Below are positions 18,961-61,196 of a stretch of DNA of 64,000 nt, piece by piece. The stretch is from the IMG/VR virus record IMGVR_UViG_3300028581_000010; one strand, 5' to 3'. Numbering within the stretch: position 1 is the stretch's first letter; the number at the start of each line of letters is the position of its first letter. The stretch comes from a virus. Its lineage: Duplodnaviria; Caudoviricetes. The position numbers were made by a program, and so were the translations under genes. The notes beneath the pieces are model-generated. The model was not told the origin of the DNA. It saw only the letters and a list, made by a program, of their open reading frames with translations, and searched no databases.

Positions 18961-19197
18961 TCAGGCTATCTTATTTAGCACTGCTGCGAGCTGATTTATG
19001 GCTGCGTCGAACAGAATGCGACGGGCCTCGCTGAAGTCTTTTTCATGGCTGACGATGCCAAACATGTCGAAGGACTTCATGGGAAACTGCCTATCCCTAA
19101 ACGCTGCCTCCCAGAGGGCTATTATGCTCCAGTTAGTTCTGTCGCTTGCGTCTGGCTGGCATGCTACGAGAACCTTTAGTGCGGTTTGGTTGCTCAT
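18961..19197 (-). CDS. Hypothetical protein
   Basis: 78-aa ORF. Confidence 0.6.
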   Translation of the reverse strand: MSNQTALKVLVACQPDASDRTNWSIIALWEAAFRDRQFPMKSFDMFGIVSHEKDFSEARRILFDAAINQLAAVLNKIA

Positions 19198-19591
19198 TGT
19201 ATATTTTCTCTATACCGGGTGGAACCAGCCGGCGTGGGACGTGTATTTTGAAGCCTGAAGGAGTGTGAGTGATTCCGGTATACTTGGCATTCAGTATAGA
19301 ATCTACCTTAAATTGATCTGGAACGTTATGTAGCAGGCCGCCTAGAATCTTATTCTTTTGGCGGTAGTTGCCTACGTCGGACTGCTTCTTGGCCTCTATT
19401 AACTTAGTCAGTTCCAATGACTTAGCTTGTTTTTGTAAATCTTTTCTGATCTGGTCGAACACTGGCTCAGACCTGGCTGCCACAATACCGCTCTTGACCT
19501 CGATTCTTTCCATAGGCGTTAGCGACGATTTCCACGGCTTGATCTTCTTGAGCCAAGCTGGAACTCCTTTTTTTATTCTAGGTACGGGCAT
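19133..19591 (-). CDS. Basic hypothetical protein containing an LQKQAK motif
   Basis: TGCTATAAT-N6-ATG at 19591. Confidence 0.7.
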   Translation of the reverse strand: MPVPRIKKGVPAWLKKIKPWKSSLTPMERIEVKSGIVAARSEPVFDQIRKDLQKQAKSLELTKLIEAKKQSDVGNYRQKNKILGGLLHNVPDQFKVDSILNAKYTGITHTPSGFKIHVPRRLVPPGIEKIYNEQPNRTKGSRSMPARRKRQN

Positions 19592-19628
19592 GCATCTATT
19601 ATAGCAACAACCCACTCATAAGCCAATA

Positions 19629-24258: not shown

Positions 24259-26062
24259 GGCTCAGTGCGGCGGCGAGGCGCCCCCGAATTTCTCCGAGTG
24301 TTTGGAATTTGACCAGGTGTCCGTTCAGGAACACCGTCTCCAGGCAGCCACCCTTTTCTTCTTCGGGTGTGCAGCAATCTTTGAGGACGTACTCGCCGTC
24401 GATCAGGTCAACACGCAGCAAGCCCTTGGCAGACTTCTTCATGCCATCGTCGGTAACCGGATCCTTGAACATCTCACGAGGCTCGTATTCAACTTCGCCG
24501 TAGGTGGCTTTTATTGCTACTTGTATGGGGTTAACTTATCCCATTTTCGTTCTAAGTGCTCAGTTTTATTGCAGGCTTTTGCCCCAGTTCATAATAAAAT
24601 TATATGACTTTACAATAAAGGTGATAAGCAGAAACTTAGCCAATTTTAATGGACTATATCATCATCCTTTCGGATGCCGGAGGCTGTGGGCTTACCGTAG
24701 TATCCCTAGTCTCTGAACCTTCCACGAACTGCCCCGTGGCTCGGCTGCTGATTGTGTGTTGAAACACTTCCCAGCAATTCTTCCGGTTTGCATTAAATAT
24801 TTCTACTTAATGGGGCTAGCAATTAACCCAAACGTGTCGCGAGTATTCATTTGATACGTGTAGCTGCCGATACCGTAGACGACATTCGTGCTCGCGTAGC
24901 CTTTTTCTTTAAGGCGCTTAGTTGTATCCGCAGCTCTGTCTTTTGTGATAGCATCTCCGTAGATGGCTCCGATGTGCGGGTCGAGTACCTTGTAACCCTT
25001 GCTGTTGAGCGTCGTGCCGAACAGCTCACCGAGCGTCTCGATCAGACCGAGCCGAATGGTGTGCATCTCCGCTGGGTTGAGCTTCGCCATCTGTGGGTGG
25101 AAGCCGTCGTAGCCGCACAAGCAGTCCACGGGATCCGTCCAGAAGCTGTCCGGGCGAATCACGAGCTTGCCGTTGCGCGCCATGATCTTCTCCTTCAGGG
25201 CAGGCAGAATCACCGTAAGCACATGAGGCATGCTCCACGTGTCAGACACGATGGAGATGATGCCTTCGGGGTAGAGGTCAAGCAGCCGCTCGAACGTCTC
25301 GAGCTCGCCTTCCTTGGTCCCCATGCACATTACGGAGTGCTCCGTAGCAGGCACCGAGCCTCCCACGAGTTCTTTGGTCACGTCCGCGCCGTAGTACTCC
25401 TCAAGGAACGTAATTGCTGGAAACGTATCCGTGCCTGTGAAGGACAGCAGGTGACCAGCTCCGCTCGTGCACGCGCTCTCGAAGGAGCTCATGCCGCGCA
25501 TGGAGAAGTCGTGCCCTTGCCACATGACGAAGTCCAGATCGTCCGCCGTTTCATACGCTCCTTGGATAAGTTCCTTCTTGAACTCATGTGCGAGTGTGGC
25601 GCTCGTGCAAGGCTGCCATGTCGTGCAGCTGATGATCGTTTCGAGATAGTTGACCAGCCATGCGGCATGGTCTTCCGTCTCACGAATGGTGAACATAGGC
25701 ACGCGTACCGGTACCAAGCTTCCCTCGGGAAGGGCCTTGATCTCCAGTGGCATATACCCCTGGTCGTGCAACTGTTCGAGATGCTCGTAGGTTATGGCCT
25801 TTGGCCCGAGCGTGCAGCTGACGAGTCTGGAGTAGCTCGCTTTGACGTCCTCGAAGGGAAGCTCAAAGAAACCCTTGTTCCAGCCTTCGATGATATATTT
25901 CAGGATTGCGTACTGCAACCCGAAGAACACAATCTTGTTTGTGCTCGGAATCCTGCTTTTACGGGGCGTGCAGTTGTTGTACAACGACGTCATCCCGGAA
26001 GGATACATTCTGTAGTGTGGGACTTTGTAAAAGTCCACCTGTGTAAGTGGTTGTGGAAGCAT
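24251..26062 (-). CDS. Nicotinamide phosphoribosyltransferase-family enzyme (Nampt/Namat-like, about 501 aa) split by a group I intron; exon 1 26062-24826, exon 2 24519-24251
   Basis: DFYKVPH..MYP, HDFSMRG, GTDT, VPATEHS, SIVSDT, VIRPDS, IYGDAIT, GIGSYTYQ. Splicing gives TRDTFG(L)AIKAT...KDP.TD...KKSAKG. Confidence 0.93.
24520..24825 (-). mobile_element. ORF-less group I intron (306 nt)
   Basis: P1: exon GGGU pairs with GCCC (U.G at the splice site). P10: AUUGCUA pairs exactly with exon 2 UAGCAAU. P AAUUGCUGGGAA, Q AAUCAGCAG, R GUUCAGAGACUA, S AUGAUAUAGUCC; terminal G. Confidence 0.95.
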
Positions 26063-26071
26063 GTTTGTGTA

Positions 26072-27019
26072 TTACTGATCGATTACGTGGTCGACGAGAA
26101 ACTGGGGCGCATCGGGCAAGTATCCTAGCCAGCTGTTGCTGTAGGTGTCCGTGGTCCAGATCTCATCGATTCCTTCTTTGTAGAGAGGCTCGAGCCCCTT
26201 GGAGAAGATGCCATGCGTCACAAATAGAACGACTTTGGCAGCCTTCTTGGCTTTGAGGACCTTAGCCAGCTCAATGAACGTGCGCCCACCATCACAGATA
26301 TCATCCGCGATAATGACCGTCGCTCCTTCAAGCTCACCTTCCTCTGCATAGACGATTGTCTCTTTGATCTCGCCTGTTGCCAGATTGCGCAGCTTGTCTG
26401 CGCGAATGAACCGTGGGTGGCCGAAGTACTTGGCCAACTCGGAGGTCTTTTTGTTAGCCCCTGCATCCGGGCTGACAAATATGACGTGCTTGTCTGCATA
26501 GGGTCCGTTGATACGGGCCTTGAGCATCTCAGAGCTCTGTACGATCTTCAGCTGAGAGACGTCCTGCAGGTTGTTGATAACGCCGGAAGCAACGCTGGAA
26601 TGCGCGTCGAAGGTCTTCACGGAGAAGAAGTTCATGCTGTTGATGCTCTCGCCGAACGCCCTCAAGCTGAAGGCCTCTCCGACGCAGCACATGCGATCCT
26701 GCCTGCCGTAGGGTAGATAGGGAAGCACAAGCGCAACAGGAACAATTGTACCTCTTGCGTGAACTGCCATGCGCACGACATTATTGACCTGTATCATGGC
26801 CATGAAGTCGTTGCTGTTGGCGATACGCGACACGATAAGAATGTGATCGAGATCGTCGAACAGGCACCTGGATAGTGCGCCCATCTGGTCGGGCGTGAAC
26901 TTTATACCCACCTCACCGCCTGGAAACAACCATTGGTTCGGAATGAGGGTTAGTGGAGCCTGTGGCTGCCCCTTGCGAAAAATAACTACAGATGTATTGG
27001 AGTCGAATGATGCTGACAT
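26072..27019 (-). CDS. Ribose-phosphate pyrophosphokinase family enzyme (Prs/Adps-like)
   Basis: FPGGE, PYLPYGRQDR, DAHS, SPDAGA, KLRN..TGEI, IIADDICDGGRTF, FVTHGIFS. Confidence 0.93.
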   Translation of the reverse strand: MSASFDSNTSVVIFRKGQPQAPLTLIPNQWLFPGGEVGIKFTPDQMGALSRCLFDDLDHILIVSRIANSNDFMAMIQVNNVVRMAVHARGTIVPVALVLPYLPYGRQDRMCCVGEAFSLRAFGESINSMNFFSVKTFDAHSSVASGVINNLQDVSQLKIVQSSEMLKARINGPYADKHVIFVSPDAGANKKTSELAKYFGHPRFIRADKLRNLATGEIKETIVYAEEGELEGATVIIADDICDGGRTFIELAKVLKAKKAAKVVLFVTHGIFSKGLEPLYKEGIDEIWTTDTYSNSWLGYLPDAPQFLVDHVIDQ

Positions 27020-35903: not shown

Positions 35904-36332
35904 TTATTTACCGAACATGAGCTTGATTTTGCGTTTTATCTTAGAAATGTCTAGATTCATCTCTGTTTCAGTATATCTTAACACAATGTAGCCCTTTTTT
36001 TCCAGTCTTTCAGTAACCTTTTTGTCCTTGGCGGCCTGTTTTGGCTTACCGTGCCAAAAATCTCCGTCTGTAAAGAGCACATAATTGGGCTCGACGACGG
36101 CGTCTGCGACACAAATACCGGCTACAGGCTGCTGCTTCTTGAAGCCTATACCAAGCGCCCCTAAAAGTTCATACATTTTAGTCTCAATGTACGTTTCAGG
36201 ATGCTTTCCGTTGAGGTAACCACGTATGCCTGCACACTTTGCACTACATGTCTTACCGTTCAGCATCCTTTTTGGAGGCTTAACCCATTCCCTTTTGCAA
36301 AAAGGACAAATTTTTAGCTCTTTTTTAACCAA
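35904..36332 (-). CDS. DUF559/Vsr-like PD-(D/E)XK endonuclease with zinc ribbon (probable free-standing homing endonuclease)
   Basis: CPFC..CSAKC, T.IE, ADA, FTDGDFWHG, D......L...GY.VLR. Confidence 0.8.
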   Translation of the reverse strand: MVKKELKICPFCKREWVKPPKRMLNGKTCSAKCAGIRGYLNGKHPETYIETKMYELLGALGIGFKKQQPVAGICVADAVVEPNYVLFTDGDFWHGKPKQAAKDKKVTERLEKKGYIVLRYTETEMNLDISKIKRKIKLMFGK

Positions 36333-39099
36333 TTTTTAACTTTCTTCGCACTTTGGCGAGCTCGTCGACCTTTTTGCCGGCAACCTTGCAAAATTCTTGC
36401 AGTGTTTTGGGGCCGGCAGGGTCCACTGGAAGGTTAATATACTCATCCTCGCTCAAAAATGCGTATTTTGTGTAGTTTTTTAGGTAAATTAAGTCATTTT
36501 TGTTGCACCAGTCGCTAGACCTGTCATCTGTAATACCACTTGCGCGCCTAAATACACCCGCAACTTTCTCTGACGAGCCCTTCAAGATACCAGCTGACTC
36601 CGCAGCCAGTCTAGCCTCGTTATCTTTTGCATTTTGCGCCTCCTGTGCAACCTGCGCACGGTACTTTTCTTCTAAACTTTGAGTCCGTTGATCGGTAACT
36701 TGCTGTTGCTGCGCTTGTCTTTGTGCATTAAAGCGAGAGCTGATGTATGACTTCATGTCACCTCCAGCCTGAGCACGCGGATCTTGGCTGTAGTCCTGTT
36801 CAAACTGCAGGCGTTGCTCCTTCTTACGATTAGACGCCACCGCTAACTGTGCCTCTAGCGCTCTTTCTGCGTTTGCATTAGAGCTATTCTCTATATCTTG
36901 AGCTATTCGTTGCTGATTAGCTGTGAGCAAGCCTGTTATTGAGCCCACCGGATCTATAGCTCCTCTCCATATATTTCCAGCCACCGACCCATTAGCCCTG
37001 GAGTCCACTTGTTCTTGCAGATACTGCGGAACTTCTCCATAACGCGCTGCATCAACTAGCCGCGCTGCGCTGGTCAGATGTACAGCTGGCAGCACCCCTG
37101 AAGACATTGTTGCGGCACCTGAGCCTGCAGCTACTAGATCACCATTATATACATCGGTTGCAACCCCTAAACCTATGAGCGACTTCCCAACATTGCCCGC
37201 GAAGCGTCCAGGTCGCGAGCTTCTAGGTGTGACAGGCTGCGCAGGTTGTGGAGCTACTGCACCGCCAGCGGAAGGCCCACTAATCAATGGATGCGGTTGC
37301 CCAGGAATTATAGGCGCAGCGTTTTTCGGCGCCGGTGTGGTGAATGCAGGCCGCGGCAGAGGCTGCGTTTTTTTAGGTATAGTGCCTGGCTGCTTAGGTA
37401 TAATAGGCTGCGTTTTAATTGCTGTGTTTATCTTTGGTGGTGGGGGCAGTGTTTCCGGTACACCAGGTATCACAACTTTTGGAGCTGTACCTGGTGCAGG
37501 TTGCCGGCTACTTGCTGGTGTAAAGCCTTGCACAGGCTGCGTTAAATCCTTACTAAGTTTTTCAAGCATACTCATAGGTTGTTCTTTCTTTTGTTTATGC
37601 TCTTTAAGCTTATCCATCACCTTTGAAATAAGGTACGACCCTACAGCAAGCCCACCTGTAGCCGCCATGACCTTAAGATTCTTAATCTTCTGGTGGCGCA
37701 CATCACTGCGCAGCGTCTTAGCCGCGTCCGCAACGTCGAAGTTATACCCAACACCACGTCCTTGAATTCTCGGATTTTCGTGCTCGAGCAGTTGCTCGAA
37801 ATGCTTTCTTCTGTCGGCATGCGCCGTGTCCCACGTAACTGCCGAAGGTATCTCGTGTGTTACGTTGGAGGCATTGCCTTCAAAGTGCTTCATGAACAAG
37901 TCTCTGTTCGTATTGGGAAGCACGTTGATAATCTTACCCACTTCTTCGCCAGGCATATGCATCAGCTCGCCCACAGTGGAGCCGGGTACAGTCATCACAT
38001 AATGTGAGTCTGCAAATTTGCGTGCAACCTCGCCCTGCGGAATACGGTCGATAAAGTTCACGCCGCTAAACCTGGCCTTACCCTCAGGAGTTGCAATATA
38101 GTCCTGTAGCTCCTTGAAAAAGTTGTCGCTACGCATGCCGCGCATCTGCATCGGGTTTTTATCCCAGGTAGAGCCTAGCAGTGCGTCTAACTCAAAATTG
38201 TTGCCGTGTTTGGCCCGCATAGCCTCCACGACGTCATCTAAGAAAAAACGTTTGCTGACGTCGTACCGGCGCGTGGCATAGTTCTTGGCCCCAGGGCGCC
38301 TGAGTAGCTTATCTGCCATCGTAGCCGGCAGATCCTCAGTTCCAGCTACGGCCAGCTCATCAAATACCATAGGAGCGGCGTTTCCTCCGCCCATGGTAAA
38401 GAATGCCTTTTTTCTAGCCGCTGGCGACCAGTCCTTAACTGTGTATGGCGTATTAAATGCATCGCTTACAGGTATGTTACCCACGCGCATGCTCGGCAGT
38501 TTACCTGTGTGCTCCTCGGGCATGGTATAGTGCTCGTCTTTGCCTGGTGTCCAATATCTATGAAAGCGCTTTTTATCGCCGCGTACCGCCATGGCATCCT
38601 GCCCGGCTGTATCATATATTTTACGTGTGTTTACAAAGTTACCGGAGTCAAAGTCCGTATTCAGCCTTATCTTGACCTTACCTGCGTCTACAATTGCAGG
38701 TCTGCCAAACTCATGCCCCACGCCGATGACAGCATCATAGTCTGGTGGACTAGCTGCCTGGCGGACAACAGTGCGAGCTATTCCTTTGGCATCTTTCCCG
38801 CTGGTTGGCCATGGATCGTGGTCTACATTAAGACCTTGTTCTTTTAGCGCCTTAATCAGTGCGTGAGCCTGTGAGGAAAAGCTGTCTTTTGATGTATTGT
38901 TCGAAGCTATGTACGGCTGCGGGCCTCCCAACACGCGCACATGCGGAGTTGCGTCTAAGTTAAATACACGAGTACCTCCATGGTGCGCAAACTGCGCGGC
39001 AGTGGCTAAGCCTCCACCAGCCGCGAGCACTTTCAACGCCGTAGACGGGTCTATGGCGGGTTCATTAGGAGTTTCTTCAACTGGAGGCAGCTCGGGCAT
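36325..39099 (-). CDS. Large modular protein: GT-B (GT28/MurG-like) glycosyltransferase domain flanked by Gly-rich hydrophobic helices, plus Pro-rich and coiled-coil modules
   Basis: KKAFFTMGGG, FIDRIPQGEVARKFADSHYVMTVPGSTVGELM; separators LEKLS, SEKVAG, FCKVAG. Confidence 0.7.
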   Translation of the reverse strand: MPELPPVEETPNEPAIDPSTALKVLAAGGGLATAAQFAHHGGTRVFNLDATPHVRVLGGPQPYIASNNTSKDSFSSQAHALIKALKEQGLNVDHDPWPTSGKDAKGIARTVVRQAASPPDYDAVIGVGHEFGRPAIVDAGKVKIRLNTDFDSGNFVNTRKIYDTAGQDAMAVRGDKKRFHRYWTPGKDEHYTMPEEHTGKLPSMRVGNIPVSDAFNTPYTVKDWSPAARKKAFFTMGGGNAAPMVFDELAVAGTEDLPATMADKLLRRPGAKNYATRRYDVSKRFFLDDVVEAMRAKHGNNFELDALLGSTWDKNPMQMRGMRSDNFFKELQDYIATPEGKARFSGVNFIDRIPQGEVARKFADSHYVMTVPGSTVGELMHMPGEEVGKIINVLPNTNRDLFMKHFEGNASNVTHEIPSAVTWDTAHADRRKHFEQLLEHENPRIQGRGVGYNFDVADAAKTLRSDVRHQKIKNLKVMAATGGLAVGSYLISKVMDKLKEHKQKKEQPMSMLEKLSKDLTQPVQGFTPASSRQPAPGTAPKVVIPGVPETLPPPPKINTAIKTQPIIPKQPGTIPKKTQPLPRPAFTTPAPKNAAPIIPGQPHPLISGPSAGGAVAPQPAQPVTPRSSRPGRFAGNVGKSLIGLGVATDVYNGDLVAAGSGAATMSSGVLPAVHLTSAARLVDAARYGEVPQYLQEQVDSRANGSVAGNIWRGAIDPVGSITGLLTANQQRIAQDIENSSNANAERALEAQLAVASNRKKEQRLQFEQDYSQDPRAQAGGDMKSYISSRFNAQRQAQQQQVTDQRTQSLEEKYRAQVAQEAQNAKDNEARLAAESAGILKGSSEKVAGVFRRASGITDDRSSDWCNKNDLIYLKNYTKYAFLSEDEYINLPVDPAGPKTLQEFCKVAGKKVDELAKVRRKLKIG

Positions 39100-39146
39100 A
39101 TACTCTATATTATACAAAAGTCAACAATTCCTGGAAAGCTTTAATA

Positions 39147-50662: not shown

Positions 50663-51022
50663 TTCGAGAAAGGTAGCGTTAACCAACGTGGCTTGCTGGC
50701 GAGTAGCCTGCATCCACCTGGTTGCTATATCACTGGGATTGTTCCACCAGGCCCGAATGTGCAGCGATTTCCACATCGAGTCCCATACCCACAAAGAGTT
50801 GTCTCCAGCGGGATAGAGATAGACCACGACGGCGTGGCTCCACTGCGTTGTATCTATCTTGAGCACCTTGGCCTGTATCTCGGCCTTATGTAGAGACTGT
50901 ACCATGATGACGGCCTCAGGCAGACAGGCGTTCTTATACTTGCCATAGATGGCATTCTTCTCTGCTGGAGGCTCTATGGCACACCCAACCAATAAAAGAC
51001 TAGCTAGCAGTAGGGCTCTCAT
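50660..51022 (-). CDS. Lipoprotein with putative papain/transglutaminase-like Cys-His-Asp triad
   Basis: LLVGC lipobox; ACLPEA, WSHAVVVY, WVWDS. Confidence 0.65.
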   Translation of the reverse strand: MRALLLASLLLVGCAIEPPAEKNAIYGKYKNACLPEAVIMVQSLHKAEIQAKVLKIDTTQWSHAVVVYLYPAGDNSLWVWDSMWKSLHIRAWWNNPSDIATRWMQATRQQATLVNATFLE

Positions 51023-53658
51023 TTAGTTTTCAGTAGTGCCGCCCGCATCTCTGGAGTAATCTTGAAATGAGCTGCGTTGTCGTGAAAGCCTGGCTGATAA
51101 CCAGGAAGAGCTTCGAGCTCCTTACCACACACACCCTTATGAAATCTATCCAACGGAATAATGCTAGATGGATCTTTAGGGTGATTTAAGACCTGTATGC
51201 CTTCTCTCGGCGGTGCACCGAGCCCAAGTGTTCTTGTTTCAGGAGGAGCAAAACGTAGGCGATCTACTCCTCTACTATGACCAACCCATAGATCAGCCGC
51301 GGCTGGCACAGTATATGCATGTCCTGCATCTTCGGTCACAGTGTAACCAGCTCTCTCGAGCAACTTACGTACCGCGGTATAAAAAGCTCTTGGACGAGGC
51401 CTGTCGATATACTTGGGATTACCTTTGATGAGAACAGCTTTAAGTTGTTTCTCTAAACCTGCGGCTTTCTTCAACTTCTCCACCTTGTCCTTGTGAAATG
51501 CTACACGCTCGCTCAACGGCACGTTGGTCGGAGTCTCCACGGTAGTATAAGAGATACCCTTATTCTCCATGACCTTCTCGATAGAGCCCTTCGGTGGATA
51601 CTTGCCATCAGTGATCACGCCCTGTACTGCTTTGTCACCTTTTACGGACTTAGCCTGTCCTAGAGCCTTGCCCGCGTTTAGCTTCTGTCTAACTCTGTCA
51701 GCTATGTCATGCGAGGCATAAGCGTAGGCGCCATGTGCGTCGTTATCCTCATGAAGATCTATAATTTGCTTGGGATGTAGAGCAACTAGCTTGCGAAGAG
51801 CGCTCACGAGCTTGGGTGGTTTGTTTGCGTCGTCGAAGTGTCTGTTTAAATCAATACCATGATCTGTGCGTTTACCAGAATGATTACCTACATCAACTAC
51901 AGGTAACCCCTTGCTTGCGAGCTGCCTGCCTGCAATAGCTGCAGCTGGCTCGTCACCGTGTATACCGGAGACAATTACGGTGTCGGCTGCTGTCTTCTCA
52001 TGCTGGTTTCTGTTACGCAGGTGCTTCATGACCATGTCATAGAAACCAGCAGTCTTCAACCCAGCCTGTTGCTGGTTCTGTGCAAGAAACTGGCTATCTC
52101 TGGCAATCGCCTCGCGTAGTGCTTCTGCGCCCATCTCGTCGCCTGACTTAACCTTGTAGATGTAATCCCTAAAAATACGTGCACCCTCGGGAGGCATCTT
52201 GTCTAAAATGGCAGGATTCTTCTCTATCTCCGTAAATACCTGATGTATCTCGGCAGGAGTGTTCATCTTTCTTCCAGTGACGTCTCTGAGTGTGTTTAAA
52301 CCAGATAGAGCACCTTGCAGATACTCGGGAGCTTGAGTTGTGTTGTACGTAGGAGCCCTCAAGGCACCAGGTGCAACAAATTTATCCTCTGGCTTGAATC
52401 CCTTGCTCACCAATGATTGCTGCTGCTTCTGGTTTAGTGTACGTTGAAACTTTGTTAGATTTGCAACTAGTCCTGCAGGGGCGACATTCTGAAGAAAGGC
52501 ATGGTTTCCTTCATGCATGGCTGCCCAAGCTGTTTGATCAGCGGGCATTTTGGCGTTATCCGCATAACCACTGAAGTTATTCCAGGATACACCAGGCCAG
52601 CCATCTGCGCTGTTGCCTTTGTTTCCGTAGACATACTTCTGCAGCGCGGGATTAACAGATATGCTCTCTGTTTTAGGATGATACATGCCGGAATCATCTC
52701 CACCCAAAGTTAGGGGAAACTGTTGGTCTCTACGGGACCAGTCCACGCCATACGGTAACTTATCCTTAAGCTTTTCGTAGTTAGCCCTTTGCTCGGCTAC
52801 GAAGCTATCCGCACCACCAGGTATGCGCTGAAGCAGCTGGTTGTTCATTTCCGCCGGTGAAAGCGACGAATCTGATGGAAGCTGTAGCTGCGTAGGTGTG
52901 TGGGGTAATTTTCCTTTTGGAAAGATAGGGGCCTCCGTCCAACGCTCTTTTGGTTGATATACACCAGAGCGTAGAATGTCCAAACCATCATACCCATTTG
53001 GGCTAGGTGCCACAGGGCCTTTATTGACCGTTTCCAGGTTGAGCTGTGGCTCAGGCTGAGGATTGGCATTGGGCTGCAGCTTGTTCTGAGGAGGAAGCAA
53101 TGTCCTGCCATATGCGATAGCAGGCGGAGGAGTAGTTATTTCCGCTGGTGGAGGCGGCGCCAAAGTGACACCGCCTGCTTGTGGCCCTTGTTCAGGGGGT
53201 AATTTAACCTGCACCTGAGGTTCTGGTGAAACAGGCTTACTCTTAGCTATTTCTGTTTTTTCTGGAACACCAAGTGGTCTATTTATACTCGGCTCGGGAC
53301 CGACGTGCGGTGGTAATTGTGTGGGAACACCTGTAATTACGGGCTTTTCCGTCTTTACCGGTGTTTCTGCCGGTGGTTGTTGCTTAGGAGGCTGAGCAAC
53401 TGGTGTAACGTTATCAGGGACCTTTACAGGAGTGACCGTCTTTTCAACAGAAGGGGCCTTTACAGGCTCTTTGTTAACCGGAATGGCTCTACGTACCTCT
53501 GGTTCTGCTGTGACCGGTATAGCCTTGCGTATTTCTGGCTCTGGAGTAACTGGAATGGCCCGGCGCACTGGAACCTGGCCCGTAGTTGGGTCGATTGCCA
53601 TGCGCTGAGCCCCTAGATTAGCCAGCTTGTTGAGTAATTTTTTAGATATTCGAGCCAT
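51019..53658 (-). CDS. Large modular protein: Pro-rich RRAIPV repeats, HExxH metallopeptidase-like domain, M14/succinylglutamate-desuccinylase-like peptidase, small GxSxG hydrolase-like domain
   Basis: AMHEGNHA; SGIHGDEP, DLNRHF, IIDLHED, TVETP; WVGHSRG; separators LKTAG, EKTAA, KKAAG. Confidence 0.8.
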   Translation of the reverse strand: MARISKKLLNKLANLGAQRMAIDPTTGQVPVRRAIPVTPEPEIRKAIPVTAEPEVRRAIPVNKEPVKAPSVEKTVTPVKVPDNVTPVAQPPKQQPPAETPVKTEKPVITGVPTQLPPHVGPEPSINRPLGVPEKTEIAKSKPVSPEPQVQVKLPPEQGPQAGGVTLAPPPPAEITTPPPAIAYGRTLLPPQNKLQPNANPQPEPQLNLETVNKGPVAPSPNGYDGLDILRSGVYQPKERWTEAPIFPKGKLPHTPTQLQLPSDSSLSPAEMNNQLLQRIPGGADSFVAEQRANYEKLKDKLPYGVDWSRRDQQFPLTLGGDDSGMYHPKTESISVNPALQKYVYGNKGNSADGWPGVSWNNFSGYADNAKMPADQTAWAAMHEGNHAFLQNVAPAGLVANLTKFQRTLNQKQQQSLVSKGFKPEDKFVAPGALRAPTYNTTQAPEYLQGALSGLNTLRDVTGRKMNTPAEIHQVFTEIEKNPAILDKMPPEGARIFRDYIYKVKSGDEMGAEALREAIARDSQFLAQNQQQAGLKTAGFYDMVMKHLRNRNQHEKTAADTVIVSGIHGDEPAAAIAGRQLASKGLPVVDVGNHSGKRTDHGIDLNRHFDDANKPPKLVSALRKLVALHPKQIIDLHEDNDAHGAYAYASHDIADRVRQKLNAGKALGQAKSVKGDKAVQGVITDGKYPPKGSIEKVMENKGISYTTVETPTNVPLSERVAFHKDKVEKLKKAAGLEKQLKAVLIKGNPKYIDRPRPRAFYTAVRKLLERAGYTVTEDAGHAYTVPAAADLWVGHSRGVDRLRFAPPETRTLGLGAPPREGIQVLNHPKDPSSIIPLDRFHKGVCGKELEALPGYQPGFHDNAAHFKITPEMRAALLKTK

Positions 53659-53698
53659 TACACGCCTTGCCCCACAAATATCTAACTATTTTAGCAGC

Positions 53699-54496
53699 TT
53701 ATAAGTCGTTTATCCAGCTGAACTTTGTAGATAGGCCGTCGGAGAGCTGCTTACCGAGTATTTCCTCGTAATTCCTCGGTAGAGGCTTCACGTTGCTTTG
53801 AATCAGATGCTGCCCATAGGGCCAACCCGTCTCGTGCTCGTGTGTATATTGTTCTACGTTGGTAAAATCATGTACAAACCGTGGTTCGCCGAGATAATCC
53901 CACACCTGATCCATGACTGCTTGAGGAAACTGTGTAAGCTTGTCAGCATTGACGAAGAACAGCTTGCTCTTGAACCTGGATGCTGCGTCAAATACACGCT
54001 CTATGGCAATACCAACGGGAGGAGTGTTCAACCAGCCCTGTGCGCGCTTCTCCATCGTTGTAAATCCTTTAGCATTATTGGCTTCCGGAGATGCGAAGGG
54101 AGCTGGATGCTCGCGCCGAATCTTCTCCATGCTGCATATAATACCACGTACATCTCTAACGGGGACGAGAATCTTGGCATCGGGAAACATCTTGTAGGTT
54201 TGATCGATCTGCCCAACCCAGCTACGGCTCTTGTCAATGACAACGGGCCTATCTGTGAGAGAATCAAATGCTGCGAGTATACCAGCACGGTTATAATCAT
54301 CGAACATCTTCTCTACATCCATGGGCTGCCATGCTTTGGCGGCCTCGGACTTGAATAAGCCACGCGCTAGGTAGCTAATCTCATTCATGGGAGATGTTGC
54401 TGTGGCATGAACGCGCGGATTCTGTGCGAGTATATTACATAGAAGAGTGCTGCACGAACGGGGCAGCCCTGATACGAAGTGAACTGTTTTAGGCAT
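53699..54496 (-). CDS. Sulfotransferase (PAPS-dependent, Sulfotransfer_3-like)
   Basis: FVSGLPRSCSTLL 5'-PSB loop, VIDKSRSW, VPVRDVRGIICS; TTGACA-N16-TACGAT-N6-ATG. Confidence 0.88.
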   Translation of the reverse strand: MPKTVHFVSGLPRSCSTLLCNILAQNPRVHATATSPMNEISYLARGLFKSEAAKAWQPMDVEKMFDDYNRAGILAAFDSLTDRPVVIDKSRSWVGQIDQTYKMFPDAKILVPVRDVRGIICSMEKIRREHPAPFASPEANNAKGFTTMEKRAQGWLNTPPVGIAIERVFDAASRFKSKLFFVNADKLTQFPQAVMDQVWDYLGEPRFVHDFTNVEQYTHEHETGWPYGQHLIQSNVKPLPRNYEEILGKQLSDGLSTKFSWINDL

Positions 54497-54559
54497 TCTC
54501 GTATCGTACTCGCACTACGAGGAATGTCAACCGAAAATTACTCTAAACTCTCGGCTTGA

Positions 54560-57535
54560 TTAATCACAGACGCCATCGCTGATCAGTGCCGTGGCGCTAT
54601 AGAGAGAACCGGCTGGATTCGTACAACCAAGAGGCACATCCATTACCCACCCTAGAGCTTCCAATGCAGCTAAGTTCGCACGAAGTGTGTCTTTAGCTGC
54701 AGACGGCTCCGCGGCAATCGATGTCCCTGTTGAGCTAAATATAAACGTACCATCAGTCCGCCCTGCAGCAACTAGCTGCGTCGTGAGTGGTACTAGCTTA
54801 TTCGCAGATATGCTTCCGTTGTTGGCTCCTATCTCCACATAAGCAAGATTAGTTACAGTTCCCACCGCGGCAGTTGATGTAGGTAGTACGAACGAGGCAT
54901 GCCCGTTATAGTCACTGCAACCACTTATAATAAGAGACATCAGCGATGTCATTCCGGACATATCCTGTAAACCAGTATCATCGTGCCCTGCAGAGGCTGT
55001 AATGGTGATTTCCTCAAGAGCTGGAAAGCCGGTGGAATCGGTTACAACCAAACCGCCGTAGTTCCCCTGACCACTCTCTGAAATTGTTAACCTCTGCAGG
55101 CTCGGCGCATCCCACGTACTATCGATGAATAGCTGCGTATATCTGAAGCTATTCTGTATAGTTATATCTGTCAAACTGGTCCAGCCGGTGAAGTCTATGT
55201 CTAAGTCTCCATATATGCCGGTTATGTTAGTAAGTGTGAGAGATGTAAGCGAGGACATGCCCGTTGTGTTGAGTACTTGCAAACCATCATAACCGCAATC
55301 GTTGATAGCGAGTGACGTGAGCGCTGTAAGCCCAGAGCAGTCTGACAAAATAAACGAGTTCGTGGCCATCGGAAAGCCATTTCCACAATAGTCAAACACC
55401 AGCACGGTCAGCGAGCCAAGGGCGGATGTGTCGTCGATGACAAAATCGGAGTGACGTGAGCAGTTCGCAAATGCTAGTGATTGAACCGGACAACCTGCAG
55501 CAACTGCAAAGCTTATGGGGTGACATGTGTCATTCGGTAGGTCAGCCACTAGCATAGCAGGAGTGCGCGCGTTTGCCACCAATTGCATAGTGTTATCATA
55601 GACGCGCAGACCATACTCACAAGATCCATCATCGCAGCCTGCACTAGGGTTGTAGTTGGTTGCAGTTGGTTCTGTGCATCCAGGATACCCACTTGCATAA
55701 CATGATCCATCATCGTAGGCTGCTGCCGAATCATAAGCACAATAAAGTGGGTCCATACATCCTGGAGTACCATAAGCGCAAGATCCATCATCGCAGCTTG
55801 CACCAGGGTTGTAGTTGGTTGCAGTCGGCTCCAGGCAGCCGTAAACTGGGTCTGCTACACAAATACCAAATGCATTACCGCAGTAAGTACTTCCGTAGCA
55901 AGATCCATCATCGCACGAGGCACCAGAGTTGTAATTGCAGGACCCGTTGTTGGCTATACATCCAAAGTAACCACTTGCGGCACAAGAGCCGTCGTCATAG
56001 GTTGCTGCTGGATCATAAGCACAATAGGTGGGGTCCATACATCCTGGAACATCATGATAGTCACAGATATATATGCTACCAGTCCAGCCTTTTGTGTCTT
56101 TTAAACTAGTCCATTTATTGCAAAATTCGTACGTGTAACCATACCCTGGCCACGCCGTAATATAGATATAACCATCGTTAGGCCCATTGCTCAGCAGCGC
56201 GGCAAAAAGGAGGTCCATGTCCCAGCTATTAAACGACGTGTTACCGTCGTGTATCTCGAGGTGAGAAAGCGTTGTACTTATCGCCGAAGTGTCTGGAAGT
56301 ACAAATGTATTATGTATATTGTCCCCTCCAGCTTGTTGTAAAATCAGCTCTGTCAGACCTGTTAATCCAGAAAAGTCGACTATGCGCAAGGGGCTGTTGC
56401 TTGCGACAAAATTTGCAAATGTAAGGCTGGTCAACCCCGCCCCACCTATGAGAATCAATGGATTGCAGTCGGCACCGGCGATGTTGCTAAATGTTGGAGT
56501 TGCGCTGCCGTTAGAATACCCCAACAGCTTGCCAGGAGTAGCGCCAGATCCTGCTAATACGGTAAGGTCCTTCTGAGCTGCTCCGCCTCCACCACCTCCA
56601 GATTGAGCAACCCAGCTGCGCGTGCCACTGGTTGTAGAACTTAATACGTAGCCATTTACTGAAGGATTGCCTAAGGGAGGCTCGCCATTGGTCAAACCAG
56701 CGAGCTTGTCCTTCTCTGTAGTAGTATAATCGTTGGTAGATAGCCCCTTGCCAGCGACGGTATCTACCTTGCTGCCTAGTGCCGTAGCCACGTCCAAAGC
56801 ATTAGCCTTGGCATTCAGCGCGTCCTGTAGGCTCGAGACATCGCTAATAGAATGATAGTGCGTGCTTGCTGCCTTACCGGCGAGGGCATCGGTAAGACCT
56901 GTTATGTCAGATATGCCATAGGTATGCGTGTGCCACGTATCTGCCTTACCAGAAAGTGCTGTGGCAGTGGCCGAGCTGACCGGTTTGTCTGCGTCGGACG
57001 TATTGTCGACGTTACCGAGCCCGACCATCGTCTTGTCATAGTCTCCGCTTTGAGGCGCAATTGCCCCTACACGGCCGTTGAACGATGTGACCGCATCACT
57101 GGTATCAACCTTCTGCCAATCCGTGCCATTTGAGATGATCCAGTCGCCCAGGTTGAAGTCTATAGTCGAGAACGTCCCCGCGGTGGAGACGATGTAATAC
57201 TTTCCTTTAGCTAGCGAGGCCAGCCCAACGGCTGGAGTGTTCGTGGAAGCGTTCCACGTGCCTGCATAGGAAACCTGACCAAGAATAGAGTCTGGTAGCT
57301 GATCTGTGGGAATCTTGGCATCAGCACCAAGCGTTGCTACACCTGAAGCAGCTCCCTTCTCGGACGTGCTGATCTTCAGACTTAAGTCCGAGGTCGTTGC
57401 AAGGCCGGCAGGTAGCGTAGAACTGGCTAGCTTCCCGTCAGCTCCTAGTAAAACTAGTTTATGCTTGTCGGCTGTCCCAGAACTCTCTACTACCGCACCA
57501 GTTGCTGAAATGCGTGAGAGAATGTTGTTTTCCAT
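54560..57535 (-). CDS. Tail fibre / receptor-binding-like protein with LRR-like blocks and Cys-rich GCxDP..DDGSC repeats
   Basis: EKGAASGVATLG, YAGTWNASTN, GLGNVDNTSDADKPVS, HTHT..ISDITGL repeats; five GC...DDGSC units; LxxLxL repeats. Confidence 0.8.
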   Translation of the reverse strand: MENNILSRISATGAVVESSGTADKHKLVLLGADGKLASSTLPAGLATTSDLSLKISTSEKGAASGVATLGADAKIPTDQLPDSILGQVSYAGTWNASTNTPAVGLASLAKGKYYIVSTAGTFSTIDFNLGDWIISNGTDWQKVDTSDAVTSFNGRVGAIAPQSGDYDKTMVGLGNVDNTSDADKPVSSATATALSGKADTWHTHTYGISDITGLTDALAGKAASTHYHSISDVSSLQDALNAKANALDVATALGSKVDTVAGKGLSTNDYTTTEKDKLAGLTNGEPPLGNPSVNGYVLSSTTSGTRSWVAQSGGGGGGAAQKDLTVLAGSGATPGKLLGYSNGSATPTFSNIAGADCNPLILIGGAGLTSLTFANFVASNSPLRIVDFSGLTGLTELILQQAGGDNIHNTFVLPDTSAISTTLSHLEIHDGNTSFNSWDMDLLFAALLSNGPNDGYIYITAWPGYGYTYEFCNKWTSLKDTKGWTGSIYICDYHDVPGCMDPTYCAYDPAATYDDGSCAASGYFGCIANNGSCNYNSGASCDDGSCYGSTYCGNAFGICVADPVYGCLEPTATNYNPGASCDDGSCAYGTPGCMDPLYCAYDSAAAYDDGSCYASGYPGCTEPTATNYNPSAGCDDGSCEYGLRVYDNTMQLVANARTPAMLVADLPNDTCHPISFAVAAGCPVQSLAFANCSRHSDFVIDDTSALGSLTVLVFDYCGNGFPMATNSFILSDCSGLTALTSLAINDCGYDGLQVLNTTGMSSLTSLTLTNITGIYGDLDIDFTGWTSLTDITIQNSFRYTQLFIDSTWDAPSLQRLTISESGQGNYGGLVVTDSTGFPALEEITITASAGHDDTGLQDMSGMTSLMSLIISGCSDYNGHASFVLPTSTAAVGTVTNLAYVEIGANNGSISANKLVPLTTQLVAAGRTDGTFIFSSTGTSIAAEPSAAKDTLRANLAALEALGWVMDVPLGCTNPAGSLYSATALISDGVCD

Positions 57536-57654
57536 CTAGATGGATCAGGTATTTAACTACTCTATCACAAATAGAAAGGCTGTGCCAGAATATTTCTACT
57601 CCGGCACAGCCTTTTGGGTCTGGATTATGTGTATCTGTCTCTTTTCTCTGTCTC

Positions 57655-57879
57655 TTAGTTGAATACGATGTTTACAGCGCCATTGCCGTTAGGTAGGACG
57701 TTGAGGTTGAACCGTTTGACTTGTGTGAATTGAAGTCCGTCAGGAAGTGTGATAATTGCAGGGTCTGCTGAGGCAATCAGTGTGATGAGTGCTGTAACTT
57801 GTGCTGCTGTGATTTGAGCCCGTGCTGTAACCGGAGGTTCAGGAAGAGCGACGATTGTTGGAGTAATTGTATCTGCCAT
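57655..57879 (-). CDS. Small hypothetical protein upstream of the fibre gene
   Basis: 74-aa ORF. Confidence 0.65.
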   Translation of the reverse strand: MADTITPTIVALPEPPVTARAQITAAQVTALITLIASADPAIITLPDGLQFTQVKRFNLNVLPNGNGAVNIVFN

Positions 57880-57906
57880 AGTGTTTGTCTTTTGGTTTAC
57901 TGTTGT

Positions 57907-58380
57907 TTACTGAGTTTGTTTATAAATTGTGTCAAAAGGAGTACCAGCTGTCAAACTTAAAGTTTTTGTGGCTGCGGAGGTATGCGGAGGAGTTGTTGGA
58001 GCTGGATGTGACTTGTTAGAATCCTTCTCCTCCAGACGAATACGCATCTCGTGATCTGTTGTGGTCTGCTGCAGGCTCTCCACCGCGGATTGAAGCCTAC
58101 CAGCCCACCATACCGTAGTACCTATCTGAACAAGCACGCCTACGAGAATAGCTGCAAACACGGTTTTTAGAAAGTTAAACAAGCCGTCGCGCTCCTGAAT
58201 AGTGACTCTGAGTGTATTAACGTCGCTGCGAGTAAGGTCCAAACTGGTTCCGATACGACTAAGGGCAGCTTCATGCCGTTCTATATTCTTATCGACTTCA
58301 TCCAGTCTAGGTGTAATTGCCATGCAAACGCCATCGTTTGGGCAAGCTGCAGGTGGGGTGTGTAAATAGGGTGGGGCCAT
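57907..58380 (-). CDS. Coiled-coil, single-TM, coiled-coil membrane protein (holin/spanin-like architecture)
   Basis: Heptads, hydrophobic FAAILVGVLVQIGTTVWWAG, HEMRIRLEE; start uncertain. Confidence 0.6.
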   Translation of the reverse strand: MAPPYLHTPPAACPNDGVCMAITPRLDEVDKNIERHEAALSRIGTSLDLTRSDVNTLRVTIQERDGLFNFLKTVFAAILVGVLVQIGTTVWWAGRLQSAVESLQQTTTDHEMRIRLEEKDSNKSHPAPTTPPHTSAATKTLSLTAGTPFDTIYKQTQ

Positions 58381-58421
58381 GGTGCTTAATGTTTCTAATG
58401 GTAATGCTCCTGATGCACTCA

Positions 58422-61196
58422 TTATACCAAGCCCTGCTGGGCATTTAAAGGTTTAATTGATTGTGGTAGTTGATTAGTCGCGGGAACTTGTGTAGGAACT
58501 GTGTTGCGGACACCTTCCATCAGGCCTCCCTTGATATGATTGTTCTGTAGAATAGGTACAGCCCAATCGCGAAACTTCTTAGTAATATCGATCAGAGGCT
58601 TGGGGTCATCCTTTTGAATAGCCTCACCTATAGTGTTGTTGGCGCTCCTTGATAGAGTACCACGGAGCACGACGTCAACTGGCCCGAAATGCCCTGCTCT
58701 AGCCCCGCCAGCCCAGTTCTGTTTAACTCTAGCCCAGGCTTCAGGGTCGCCAACAGATATACGATTAGCAATACGCTCACCATCTGGATACTTAGGCGCC
58801 GGTGTTGGCTTGGGTGTGGCAGCTGGTCTGGGTACGTTTGACGCTAATTGAATAGCAGGCGCCGGGGGTGCCCCTGCTGTCTTGACCGTATCTGAGGGGT
58901 TCAGAGCTGAATTAAGTGCTAGCCCACCGCCACCAACGGCAAGAGCACCTGCACCAGCATAGCCTAGGCGCGTATTGCGCACATATCTAGGTAGTTCTCC
59001 TTTGATGGCGGCTACGGAGGCGTCGTATACACGTGGATCTTTCTCGATGAAACCACTAACCGACCCAGTGCCGTCTGCAATGTTAGATTCGATCATGTGA
59101 GGACGCCCAGCTTTGTCTATTCCGACGTCGAAGCCATGGTTGGCCTTGTGCAGAGGAGAATCCTTCATGCCGTCCAGTATCTGCTGCACGTGTTCCTCGG
59201 CTTTGCGTAGATTTCTGGGGCGCCACGGCAAATACGGCTCCACGGCAGATGCCACTGCGCCACCGCGGTTCATAGTGGCGAACGGAATTACTTTACCGTT
59301 TACTGTGTGTACTCTGTACTCTTTATTACCTGAAAAAGGCTTGGATACAGACTCGGGTACAAATTTATCAGCCAGCCTGGACAGCGGATTAGCCTTGGCC
59401 AGGTCCAGATCAGGTTGAACAACCCAGTCTGCATGGCTGTCAGGTGTGATATGACCCATGCTCTGCGTAAGCTTAGCCATGCGCTCGGGTGACATATTAC
59501 CTTTGTTACGAACAAACAGCTCTGGATGATCCTCGACACGGGAGTCCAACGAACCAAATCCTTTTCTCTGCTTAACCACCCAACCCTCGGGATAGGCTTT
59601 ATCAAGAGCAGCTGGATGAGCTTGCTGTGAACCAAGTACGTCGGCAAGCGTTTTAGTATTCTCTAATTCCTTAAAATGCTTGGATTCTAGAAGTTTATCG
59701 TCACCCACCTGCTTATAGAGCCTTTTCTCAGCAGGAGACACAGTATTCGTATGAGCAGGAGGCTTACCATCAAAGGTCGCCTTCATCTGTCCGGGAGTAA
59801 CAGTATCCTGGTTAAACACAAAACCACTATCGCGCATACCCTTCTGAACACGCTTGTTTCCCTTGATATCTTTTCTCGAGGCACGCTCGGTTAGCATTTT
59901 ATCTGAGTAGGCCTTGGCATTTCTACCATGTCCTGTACGCAACTCACGAGCAGCACGAACAAACGCACTAGTATCCTCGGTATCACTCTTCGGGCTGATA
60001 GTAGACAACCCCTTCTTACGTGTGGCAGCTGCTACCTCTTCACCGAACAGAGCGTTATCATAGTTGGGATTCCATAATTTTCTAAGCTTGGCTAGTATCG
60101 AGGATGGCGGTTTAACCGCCCCCTGTTTTCCCAACGTTGGCTCTTTCATCGAGGCCAAACGGGCAACAATGTCCGGTAAACACAGGACATGGGAGACTTT
60201 CTCGATAGGAAAACCTTGCAGGTCTTCTAAATACCGGACATTGCGGTCGGCTTCTTGAGCTAATTTTGGTAGAGCCTGAAGTGCCTTGTTGCTGTTTGAT
60301 TTTTTCCTACTATCTAATGCGTTGACCAGCCCGTGAGCCCGAGTAACCGTAGACGTGCCATAAGTTGCTTTCAATGAACGGAATAACGTATTATCTTCAT
60401 TCTTCGTAGGTAAACCGGGCTTCGCCGAGCTCCTTTCAAGAGAAAAACTAACAGGACTCTCCACCTGTTCAGCTGTTTTATTTAACTCACGAATATTATT
60501 CTCGATTTGAGCTATATGCATTTTGTCACGAAACTCTGCCGTCTTATCCTTGTTAAACAGCCTATGCAGCGCATCTATCTCCTGAGGAGGTAATGCTTCT
60601 ATTCCTGGACGAATCTTACCCAGCTGCTCCTTGGCGAATTGATCATGATTGTCTATATACTTCTCTCTCGCCTGCATTGCTGCTGTACCAAGCTCGGGAT
60701 GCTTCTCTATCTGTGCGATCAATCTGGCCTGGTCTGTGGGATGCATGGTAGACAGTGCTCCTGTTATGGACTCTCTCGCTGCTTCCTGCCCGTAGAATTG
60801 TGCCTTGGCACCTGCATGTGCATTGTTGATCTTATCTATTGTCTTCTTCGTCAGCTGGTCTCCCTGGTTCTCTCTGAATTTCGTCATCTGACCTCTGCCG
60901 GACATTAACCCGCCTAGTAGACCTGTTGCTGCTCCTATGCCACCACCTGTGAGTATTGCTTTGGTATATTTCTGCTGAGATTCCTCTGGTGTGAGCTCGG
61001 GTTCGTCTTCTTTTCTATTGTGCTGGGCAATATACTCCTTTACTCCACCCGATGCGGCACCTACCGTACCACCCGTGAGCGTTCCTATGCCTCCGTGCAG
61101 CATATAGAAATTCTTCAATTTCAGCTTGTCTACGAAGTTCTTCTTTACGAGATCCGCTATCTCTTTCTCTAGGGCGGGATTTACAATTCCAGGCAT
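58422..61196 (-). CDS. Large modular protein: Gly-zipper TM hairpin, then a RimK/ATP-grasp ligase domain with a C-terminal Gly-rich helix
   Basis: GWVVKQRKGFGS, WVVQPDL, EYRVHTVNGKV, GFDVGID..G..HMIESN; separators NKTAE, EKVS, GKQGA, VKTAG. Confidence 0.8.
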   Translation of the reverse strand: MPGIVNPALEKEIADLVKKNFVDKLKLKNFYMLHGGIGTLTGGTVGAASGGVKEYIAQHNRKEDEPELTPEESQQKYTKAILTGGGIGAATGLLGGLMSGRGQMTKFRENQGDQLTKKTIDKINNAHAGAKAQFYGQEAARESITGALSTMHPTDQARLIAQIEKHPELGTAAMQAREKYIDNHDQFAKEQLGKIRPGIEALPPQEIDALHRLFNKDKTAEFRDKMHIAQIENNIRELNKTAEQVESPVSFSLERSSAKPGLPTKNEDNTLFRSLKATYGTSTVTRAHGLVNALDSRKKSNSNKALQALPKLAQEADRNVRYLEDLQGFPIEKVSHVLCLPDIVARLASMKEPTLGKQGAVKPPSSILAKLRKLWNPNYDNALFGEEVAAATRKKGLSTISPKSDTEDTSAFVRAARELRTGHGRNAKAYSDKMLTERASRKDIKGNKRVQKGMRDSGFVFNQDTVTPGQMKATFDGKPPAHTNTVSPAEKRLYKQVGDDKLLESKHFKELENTKTLADVLGSQQAHPAALDKAYPEGWVVKQRKGFGSLDSRVEDHPELFVRNKGNMSPERMAKLTQSMGHITPDSHADWVVQPDLDLAKANPLSRLADKFVPESVSKPFSGNKEYRVHTVNGKVIPFATMNRGGAVASAVEPYLPWRPRNLRKAEEHVQQILDGMKDSPLHKANHGFDVGIDKAGRPHMIESNIADGTGSVSGFIEKDPRVYDASVAAIKGELPRYVRNTRLGYAGAGALAVGGGGLALNSALNPSDTVKTAGAPPAPAIQLASNVPRPAATPKPTPAPKYPDGERIANRISVGDPEAWARVKQNWAGGARAGHFGPVDVVLRGTLSRSANNTIGEAIQKDDPKPLIDITKKFRDWAVPILQNNHIKGGLMEGVRNTVPTQVPATNQLPQSIKPLNAQQGLV

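Follow-up and report, generated by a model that had tools for sequence, protein, structure and literature searches.

Two genes on the minus strand of a 64,000-nucleotide (nt) stretch of Caudoviricetes DNA (IMG/VR record IMGVR_UViG_3300028581_000010; the whole stretch is hereafter called the window) encode large multi-module proteins, P0001 and P0002, which carry a putative ATP-grasp amide ligase and a putative M14-type zinc carboxypeptidase/amidase, respectively. P0001 (924 amino acids, aa; positions 58422–61196) was delimited from the open reading frame (ORF) list and its translation, and P0002 (879 aa; 51019–53658) from the same sources and its homologues. All genes discussed as part of this finding lie on the minus strand. 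The source is an uncultured lake-water jumbo phage. Identical proteins were found on a 215,276-bp contig, and the phage genome is roughly 215 kb in size. Among the phages in INPHARED, there was no nucleotide or tblastn match to the region or to P0001. With moderate confidence, we interpret the two enzymes as independent effector modules that are released from polyproteins. The evidence for this interpretation comes from the folds and catalytic residues of the two modules, from the way in which they are shuffled among phage proteins, and from the placement of a short Lys-x-Ala (K-x-A) motif at module junctions.

The ligase module occupies aa 360–770 of P0001 (about 410 residues; 58887–60119), as established by homologue search, alignment, modeling, and structure search. 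Single-sequence comparisons revealed little: Pfam matches to P0001 alone were sub-threshold (YheCD, 18.8 bits; R2K_2, 17.7 bits), a word-indexed protein search with the ATP-grasp part returned only P0001 itself, and PDB searches with single sequences gave only chance matches. With an exhaustive HMMER search, 108 relatives (69 at E ≤ 1e-10) were recovered from 1.84 billion cluster representatives, family size being counted as clusters at 50% identity. Some relatives consist of the module alone (about 400–450 aa); in others it is part of a larger protein, up to 2047 aa long, and its position there varies. In an alignment of 95 sequences, E626, R628, and E703 are invariant, and K501, E504, K542, H630, D690, and N705 are shared by at least 90% of the members. 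Together these residues form the motifs DK501, E504, K542, E626-x-R628-x-H630, D690, and E703-x-N705. Pfam models matched among the 95 aligned members include R2K_2 (42/95), R2K_3 (27/95), and YheCD (21/95), and a gathering score was reached by one member only (P0064; R2K_3, 26.4 versus 26.3 bits). This single member aside, the module represents a phage family without a Pfam model that matches at threshold.

Structural comparison places the module among the ATP-grasp enzymes. The AlphaFold model is of high quality (mean predicted local distance difference test score, pLDDT, 91.7; predicted template modeling score, pTM, 0.90). Foldseek returned 174 PDB matches at E ≤ 1e-3; all 50 of the matches listed are ATP-grasp enzymes, with D-Ala-D-Ala ligases at the top. 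The VIA-align Z scores were 10.2 for LysX/ArgX, 10.1 for the peptide ligase PGM1, 9.6 for TTLL11, and 9.4 for RimK, with about 230–270 residues aligned in each case. A Z score of at least 8 was obtained for 201 chains, and the best alignments span model residues 36–375. Because these Z scores are tied, they support the fold and the amide-ligase neighborhood, and they do not point to a substrate. Both the feature neighbors and the structure neighbors of the module in the Atlas are phage R2K clusters. Judged by its fold and conserved residues, the P0001 module is predicted to be a catalytically intact ATP-grasp amide ligase. An earlier note on this DNA, made from the sequence alone, had placed a RimK-like ATP-grasp domain at about 59050–59720. 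The domain is real, and this span corresponds to the catalytic core of the larger module. The fold that the note had expected from a structure search was found, and the catalytic E-x-N pair on which it had made the assignment depend is present (E703 and N705). RimK-type glutamylation, which the note had also envisaged, is not indicated; the nearest sequence models are R2K and YheCD, not RimK.

The ligase module closes with a Gly-rich hydrophobic helix (aa 743–765; 58902–58970), which is evident in the family consensus (RRxxYGGAGLxxxGAGA), as a hydropathy peak, and as helix 378–396 of the model. This helix is kept across the ATP-grasp family and is probably a membrane anchor or an oligomerization helix. 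Membrane-like Gly-zipper segments are also found near the N-terminus of P0001 (aa ~35–100; 60897–61094), where there is a weak match to Gly-zipper_YMGG and a hydropathy peak at aa 79–97. Directly after the ligase module, a K-T-A (aa 772–774; 58875–58883) is a candidate processing site, based on the junction enrichment of this motif described below.

Two further observations concern the surroundings of the ligase relatives. First, a stand-alone 160-aa ORF in the window (19133–19615, minus strand) has 36–51% identity to a module that is fused directly beside the ATP-grasp module elsewhere, with counterparts in three polyproteins (L016, aa 970–1055; L015, aa 563–649; L020, aa 277–350). The only Pfam hint for this ORF is a weak NUCB1_N match, and its module accompanies the ATP-grasp ligase more often than the M14 module does. 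Second, genes matching RNA_pol_Rpb2_2 lie directly upstream of ATP-grasp polyproteins on two contigs (L027, 3126–4556; L032, 617–2056), which suggests that these polyproteins are encoded together with virion RNA-polymerase subunits.

The second enzyme is a minimal M14 zinc hydrolase module that resembles Csd4, MpaA, and the AstE/AspA group (51472–51987). It lies within aa 555–735 of P0002 (nt 51454–51996), a segment with relatives at 39–53% identity embedded in five other large proteins; the module also occurs alone, as ORFs of about 194–255 aa in IMG/VR contigs. Six residues (H567, E570, N605, R606, H636, and E708) are invariant in the 14 M14 sequences compared, and R597 is kept in at least 90% of them. 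By comparison with this enzyme class, H567-x-x-E570 and H636 would be the zinc ligands, R597 and N605-R606 would bind the carboxylate, and E708 would be the catalytic residue. For the window copy, the Pfam score is 21.6 bits, the cut-off being 25. Among the family members, AstE_AspA_cat is matched by 12/14 (best E-value among the relatives, 2.9e-8), Peptidase_M99 by 5/14, and Peptidase_M14 by 3/14. As with the ligase, the module is a phage family without a Pfam model that matches at threshold. In a PDB profile search with the family, the best matches were Csd4 (E 1.9e-7) and MpaA (E 2e-4). The model of the module has a pLDDT of 90.2, and an exhaustive structural search gave Z scores of 17.2 for 3ieh, 17.1 for Csd4, 16.8 for REP34, and 14.6 for aspartoacylase, followed by carboxypeptidase B (about 14), CCP5 (12.8), and MpaA (12.6). 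The alignments to 3ieh, Csd4, aspartoacylase, and carboxypeptidase B each cover about 170–180 residues, and the module itself is pared down to a catalytic core, about 175 residues long. These patterns of fold and invariant residues suggest an intact M14-type zinc carboxypeptidase/amidase, and the M14/desuccinylase-like domain that had been noticed at about 51480–51984 is thus a real one.

One stand-alone M14 homologue illustrates the other setting in which this family occurs. It is found on a phage contig of about 50 kb (L010, 9914–10519), and its neighbors are two HNH endonucleases, a metallophosphoesterase, another endonuclease, and an Rnl1-type RNA ligase.

The matches to Csd4 and MpaA raise the question of whether both enzymes act on the cell wall. 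In such a scenario, a virion-borne M14 gamma-D-Glu-meso-diaminopimelate (mDAP) peptidase would open the peptidoglycan at entry, assisted by the HExxH and alpha/beta modules of P0002, and a Ddl-like ATP-grasp enzyme would alter the stem-peptide precursors. Csd4 and MpaA being the best PDB profile matches of the M14 family, the Peptidase_M99 matches among its members, the position of the genes next to a tail-fibre gene, and the D-Ala-D-Ala ligases that lead the Foldseek list are all consistent with this scenario, as is the presence of peptidoglycan-cutting domains in known polyvalent proteins (PMC5512222). However, genes for lysis or tails are missing around the stand-alone M14 homologues, which are located in early or auxiliary regions and have no evident export signal. 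For the ligase, the sequence models matched are R2K and YheCD rather than Ddl, the structural scores of Ddl, LysX, RimK, and TTLL are tied, and its ATP dependence rules out activity in the periplasm. We regard a cell-wall role for both enzymes as unlikely.

The remainder of P0002 is also modular. Its layout comprises, from the N-terminus, Pro-rich repeats, an HExxH region, the M14 module, and a small domain termed module B. The Pro-rich repetitive region (aa 1–280; 52819–53658) was recognized in the translation and has no family match; it contains repeated R-[KR]-A-I-P-V-x-x-E-P-E units that are reminiscent of periplasm-spanning spacers. The HExxH region (aa 285–535; 52054–52806), named for an HEGNH motif at aa 382–386 (nt 52501–52515), is a possible zincin peptidase. 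Its structure neighbors in the Atlas are Peptidase_M78/MPTase-PolyVal, at a weak template modeling (TM) score of 0.33–0.41, and its feature neighbors are LPD families; it has no Pfam match, the MPTase-PolyVal model included. Module B (aa 740–879; 51022–51441) is a small alpha/beta domain with a GHSRG motif that corresponds to phrog_30942 and has homologues in P0008–P0028. In the Atlas it shows only a generic Rossmann-like fold, and the Pfam and Atlas comparisons gave no family assignment for either module B or the HExxH region.

The relatives of these modules occur in many different combinations. More than 20 phage proteins contain module B, and the domains found alongside it include SNF2 helicase, NUDIX, GNAT, DNA-ligase, and RNA-polymerase Rpb2; the relatives of the ATP-grasp module share polypeptides with InPase (PF18823), NUDIX, DUF192, and DUF5661. 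Polyvalent proteins of phages and conjugative elements have been surveyed by Iyer, Burroughs, Anand, de Souza, and Aravind (2017; PMC5512222), and InPase was defined there in phage polyvalent proteins that are predicted to be packaged and injected. Because the modules of their relatives co-occur with InPase and other enzyme domains, P0001 and P0002 are classified here, on sequence grounds, as polyvalent-type proteins. P0002 itself combines several unrelated, apparently catalytic domains in one polypeptide (HExxH, M14, and module B). What the genomic context offers on packaging is a nearby tail-fibre gene and RNA-polymerase subunit genes located beside relatives.

The placement of K-x-A provides further evidence on how these modules are joined. 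K-[TK]-A is found directly before all seven embedded M14 modules and before none of the seven stand-alone ones. For module B, a K-x-A lies no more than 20 residues upstream of 17 of the 22 starts (background, 13.6% of same-protein windows; binomial p 2.5e-11) and no more than 30 residues after 13 of the 20 ends (background, 20%; p 1.5e-5), although the junction sequences are related to each other and these p-values overstate their independence. Most ATP-grasp modules likewise have a K-x-A ahead of them. Of the five K-x-A sites in P0002, three are at domain junctions (aa 535, 555, and 730), as identified by comparison with homologues: a K-T-A at the end of the HExxH region (aa 535–537; 52048–52056), a K-T-A directly before the M14 module (aa 555–557; 51988–51996), and a K-K-A-A between the M14 module and module B (aa 730–733; 51460–51471). 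The P0002 C-terminus (…LKTK) falls exactly where homologues have K-T-A. RNA-polymerase beta (Rpb2)-like pieces flank module B in P0018 (664 aa), and a K-x-A lies at either end of the module. The total number of K-x-A sites in P0001 and P0002 is not enriched (4–5 sites versus about 7–8 expected), and only their placement is special. The homologue comparison thus bears out the description of both proteins as K-x-A-delimited, and we consider K-x-A a probable maturation-protease site. Separately, if the P0018 arrangement is real, a functional polymerase piece would need module B to be excised.

RimK/TTL-type ATP-grasp enzymes add glutamate chains, and M14 carboxypeptidases such as the CCPs can remove them. 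The earlier note had therefore proposed a writer/eraser pair. In this proposal, a protein of the host or the virion would receive amino-acid or peptide tags from the ATP-grasp enzyme and lose them again through the M14 enzyme, comparable to TTLL and CCP enzymes on tubulin. The enzyme half of this proposal holds, as both enzymes appear intact by fold and residues, and TTLL6/TTLL11 and CCP5 are among the structural matches. The pairing half does not. No fusion was found: M14 is absent from the 107 ATP-grasp homologues, and ATP-grasp is absent from the 26 P0002 homologues. Within ±10 kb, the scope that was also applied to the 188-kb and 107-kb metagenome contigs, both modules are present at 2 of the 13 distinct ATP-grasp loci and 2 of the about 10 distinct M14 loci, namely this window and L006. 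In the window, the two modules are 5–8 kb apart. L006 is a complete 204,454-bp phage with terminal repeats that is distantly related to ours, sharing three detectable ORFs with this region at 32–43% identity. There, a gene for an 863-aa M14-bearing protein is followed by a 158-aa ORF and a 417-aa ATP-grasp gene, such that the modules are only about 600 bp apart.

Co-occurrence in related phages, which had been suggested as a check, is weak. Whole-record searches detected no M14 module in seven other ligase-bearing records, comprising an 86%-complete 168-kb phage, a 17%-complete fragment, and five records with more distant ligase relatives, two of which are complete. Conversely, the ligase is absent from four M14-bearing fragments. 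The stand-alone M14 genes occupy an auxiliary region, where their neighbors encode HNH nucleases, a metallophosphoesterase, an endonuclease, and an RNA ligase; a ligase partner is missing there, as are genes for lysis or the tail. When the ligase neighborhoods were compared all against all, no gene proved to be a constant partner, and only shuffled modules were seen. In addition, CCP5 is a poorer structural match to the M14 module than Csd4, 3ieh, and REP34 are (Z of about 17 for the latter three). The association between ATP-grasp and M14 is loose and occurs only in two genomes of at least 200 kb with polyvalent-gene clusters. Taken together, we consider a dedicated writer/eraser pair rather improbable. 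A broader scenario of phage-delivered reversible peptide tagging is quite improbable in our judgment. It would require that a membrane-tethered ligase tags a host protein or a cell-wall precursor, that the carboxypeptidase trims or removes the tag, and that both enzymes are freed at Lys-x-Ala by a putative maturation protease that would mark out a broad class of cargo proteins in jumbo phages.

The interpretation that we favor, independent effector modules released from polyproteins, can be outlined as follows. P0001 and P0002 would be strings of self-contained modules joined by short Lys-x-Ala linkers, and cutting of these linkers by a phage maturation protease would turn the modules into separate proteins. 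The released modules are probably packaged in the virion or made alongside it, and would act in the infected cell. The Gly-zipper helix may hold the ligase at the membrane or in an oligomer. The ligase is predicted to use ATP for linking an amino acid, or a peptide, to a carboxylate; this acceptor would belong to a protein of the host or the phage, or to a metabolite. The nearest characterized relatives of the M14 module trim peptidoglycan stem peptides (Csd4 and MpaA) or hydrolyze N-acyl amino acids (AstE/AspA). The two enzymes would act independently, and their proximity would reflect the clustering of polyvalent genes beside fibre genes.

Several points weigh against this interpretation. 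Cleavage, packaging or delivery, membrane anchoring, and substrates are inferences, and the sequence and structure comparisons pointed to no substrate for either enzyme. The one-gene spacing in L006 exceeds what would be expected from pure chance. As for the junctions, their relatedness lowers the force of the enrichment statistics, and K-x-A is also found near the N-terminus of some stand-alone ATP-grasp proteins, so that part of the signal may be structural. The last point would fit a situation in which P0001 and P0002 remain uncleaved, that is, intact multi-domain, membrane-tethered enzymes made during infection, with K-x-A serving as a conserved linker or helix cap. The virion RNA polymerase of phage N4 offers a precedent, being packaged unprocessed despite its peptidase domain (PMC5512222). 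However, K-x-A flanks the modules on both sides whatever the neighbor is, module B of P0018 is bounded in this manner between polymerase pieces, and P0002 stops exactly at the motif position. We therefore give the uncleaved alternative a low, though not negligible, probability.

The genes between and around the two proteins form a compact array. In the order of transcription, these are P0001, a 171-aa ORF, a tail-fibre protein, a sulfotransferase, P0002, and a 120-aa ORF. The 171-aa ORF (57907–58422) has a start codon that overlaps the P0001 stop codon and is without a family match. The tail-fibre protein (991 aa; 54560–57535) matches PF12789 (PTR) and the tail PHROGs phrog_13892 and phrog_35419, and the sulfotransferase (265 aa; 53699–54496) matches PF13469 (E 9.4e-14) and phrog_27463; these identities agree with the fibre and sulfotransferase genes that had been proposed to lie between the two proteins. 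The 120-aa ORF that follows P0002 has no Pfam match. Its candidacy as a Cys-protease partner was not confirmed, as it has no similarity to the Peptidase_C92-like gene near P0004.

Elsewhere in the window, a 930-aa protein (36325–39117, minus strand) combines Gly-rich helices with a long linker rich in proline and appears to be a third multi-module protein in the style of P0001 and P0002; no PHROG matched it. A small DUF559/Vsr-like endonuclease gene is found near polyvalent-protein genes in the window (35907–36335, minus strand) and on several unrelated phage contigs (L006, 15347–15796; L002, 8585–9040; L028, 4855–5292; L029, 5604–6050), and is probably a mobile nuclease that moves within polyvalent-gene clusters. 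Finally, adjacent genes for nicotinamide phosphoribosyltransferase and ribose-phosphate pyrophosphokinase (24803–27019, minus strand) constitute a phage NAD+ salvage pair.

These findings have several implications. Each of the two modules defines a phage family without a catalogued model, and the comparative data support a simple Lys-x-Ala junction rule. If this motif is a protease site, the mature products of such polyproteins would be predictable from sequence in many uncultured jumbo phages. The loose association of the two enzymes also calls for caution, since proximity inside a polyvalent-protein gene cluster is weak evidence for a functional pair.

Among known ligase families, the closest comparison is with the R2K clade (CDC123, R2K.2/DUF4343, and R2K.3), which was defined by the loss of the linker lysine between the pre-ATP-grasp and RAGNYA domains and has a predicted role in peptide ligation onto proteins (Burroughs, Zhang, and Aravind, 2015; PMC4431377). 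In a survey of jumbo phages, R2K ligases were only sporadic (PMC7824862). The phage ATP-grasp family resembles this clade in its nearest Pfam models, with R2K_2 or R2K_3 matches at E < 0.01 in many members (the window copy scores 17.7 bits), in its sporadic, phage-borne distribution, and in retaining the standard E-x-N, like R2K.1 and R2K.2. Some 12 positions after K542, a basic residue is frequent without being invariant, and a G..S remnant of the ssxGbGl loop persists. However, almost all members score below the gathering cut-off, and the family is extended by a Gly-zipper helix conserved at the C-terminus and by a helical N-terminal region that is longer. Moreover, it keeps a near-invariant DK..E (K501) before the central domain, K501 being equated with the classical linker lysine by motif position rather than by residue-level structural alignment. 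Because this DK is retained where the clade lost its lysine, we do not assign the family to R2K. The phage module shares its three-domain fold (Z 9–10) and the arrangement of its catalytic residues with RimK, LysX/ArgX, and TTLL enzymes, and amide-bond ligation at the C-termini or side chains of proteins would be common to all of them, but identity is only 9–14%. RimK is one of many tied structural matches. The RimK Pfam model matched neither the query nor any of the 95 family members, and the Pfam and structure comparisons gave no sign of glutamate specificity or of ribosomal protein S6 as a target.

For the M14 module, the best sequence-profile and structural matches are the M14-type gamma-D-Glu-mDAP peptidases of peptidoglycan tripeptides, Csd4/Pgp1 (Peptidase_M99) and MpaA, which have the same HxxE…NR…H…E set. 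Unlike Csd4, the phage module is a core of about 175 residues without accessory domains, and its stand-alone forms appear to be cytoplasmic. The AstE/AspA group (succinylglutamate desuccinylase, aspartoacylase, and DoeB) is similar in terms of its Pfam model, found in 12/14 members, and in structure (Z 13–14.6), but the phage module is without the C-terminal beta domain of that group. In bacteria, RimK-like genes are reportedly linked to AstE-like genes.

At the level of whole proteins, P0001 and P0002 share with the surveyed polyvalent proteins the stringing together of unrelated enzyme modules in large phage proteins, including an HExxH region. They differ in their cargo and in their junctions: searching that survey by term and text turned up no ATP-grasp peptide ligase, no M14 carboxypeptidase, and no description of a K-x-A junction motif (PMC5512222). 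In this respect, two activities, an ATP-dependent amide ligase and an M14 carboxypeptidase/amidase, may be added to the cargo of polyvalent proteins. The proposed processing finds its closest parallel in gp245 of phage SPN3US, a protease that trims many of the packaged internal head proteins, virion RNA-polymerase subunits among them, at a short sequence motif (PMC10052503). Common to both would be one phage protease that recognizes a short sequence motif in many packaged proteins. However, the identified gp245 cuts, its own self-cleavage aside, all remove N-terminal propeptides (PMC10052503), whereas cleavage at the candidate Lys-x-Ala sites would separate whole enzyme modules.

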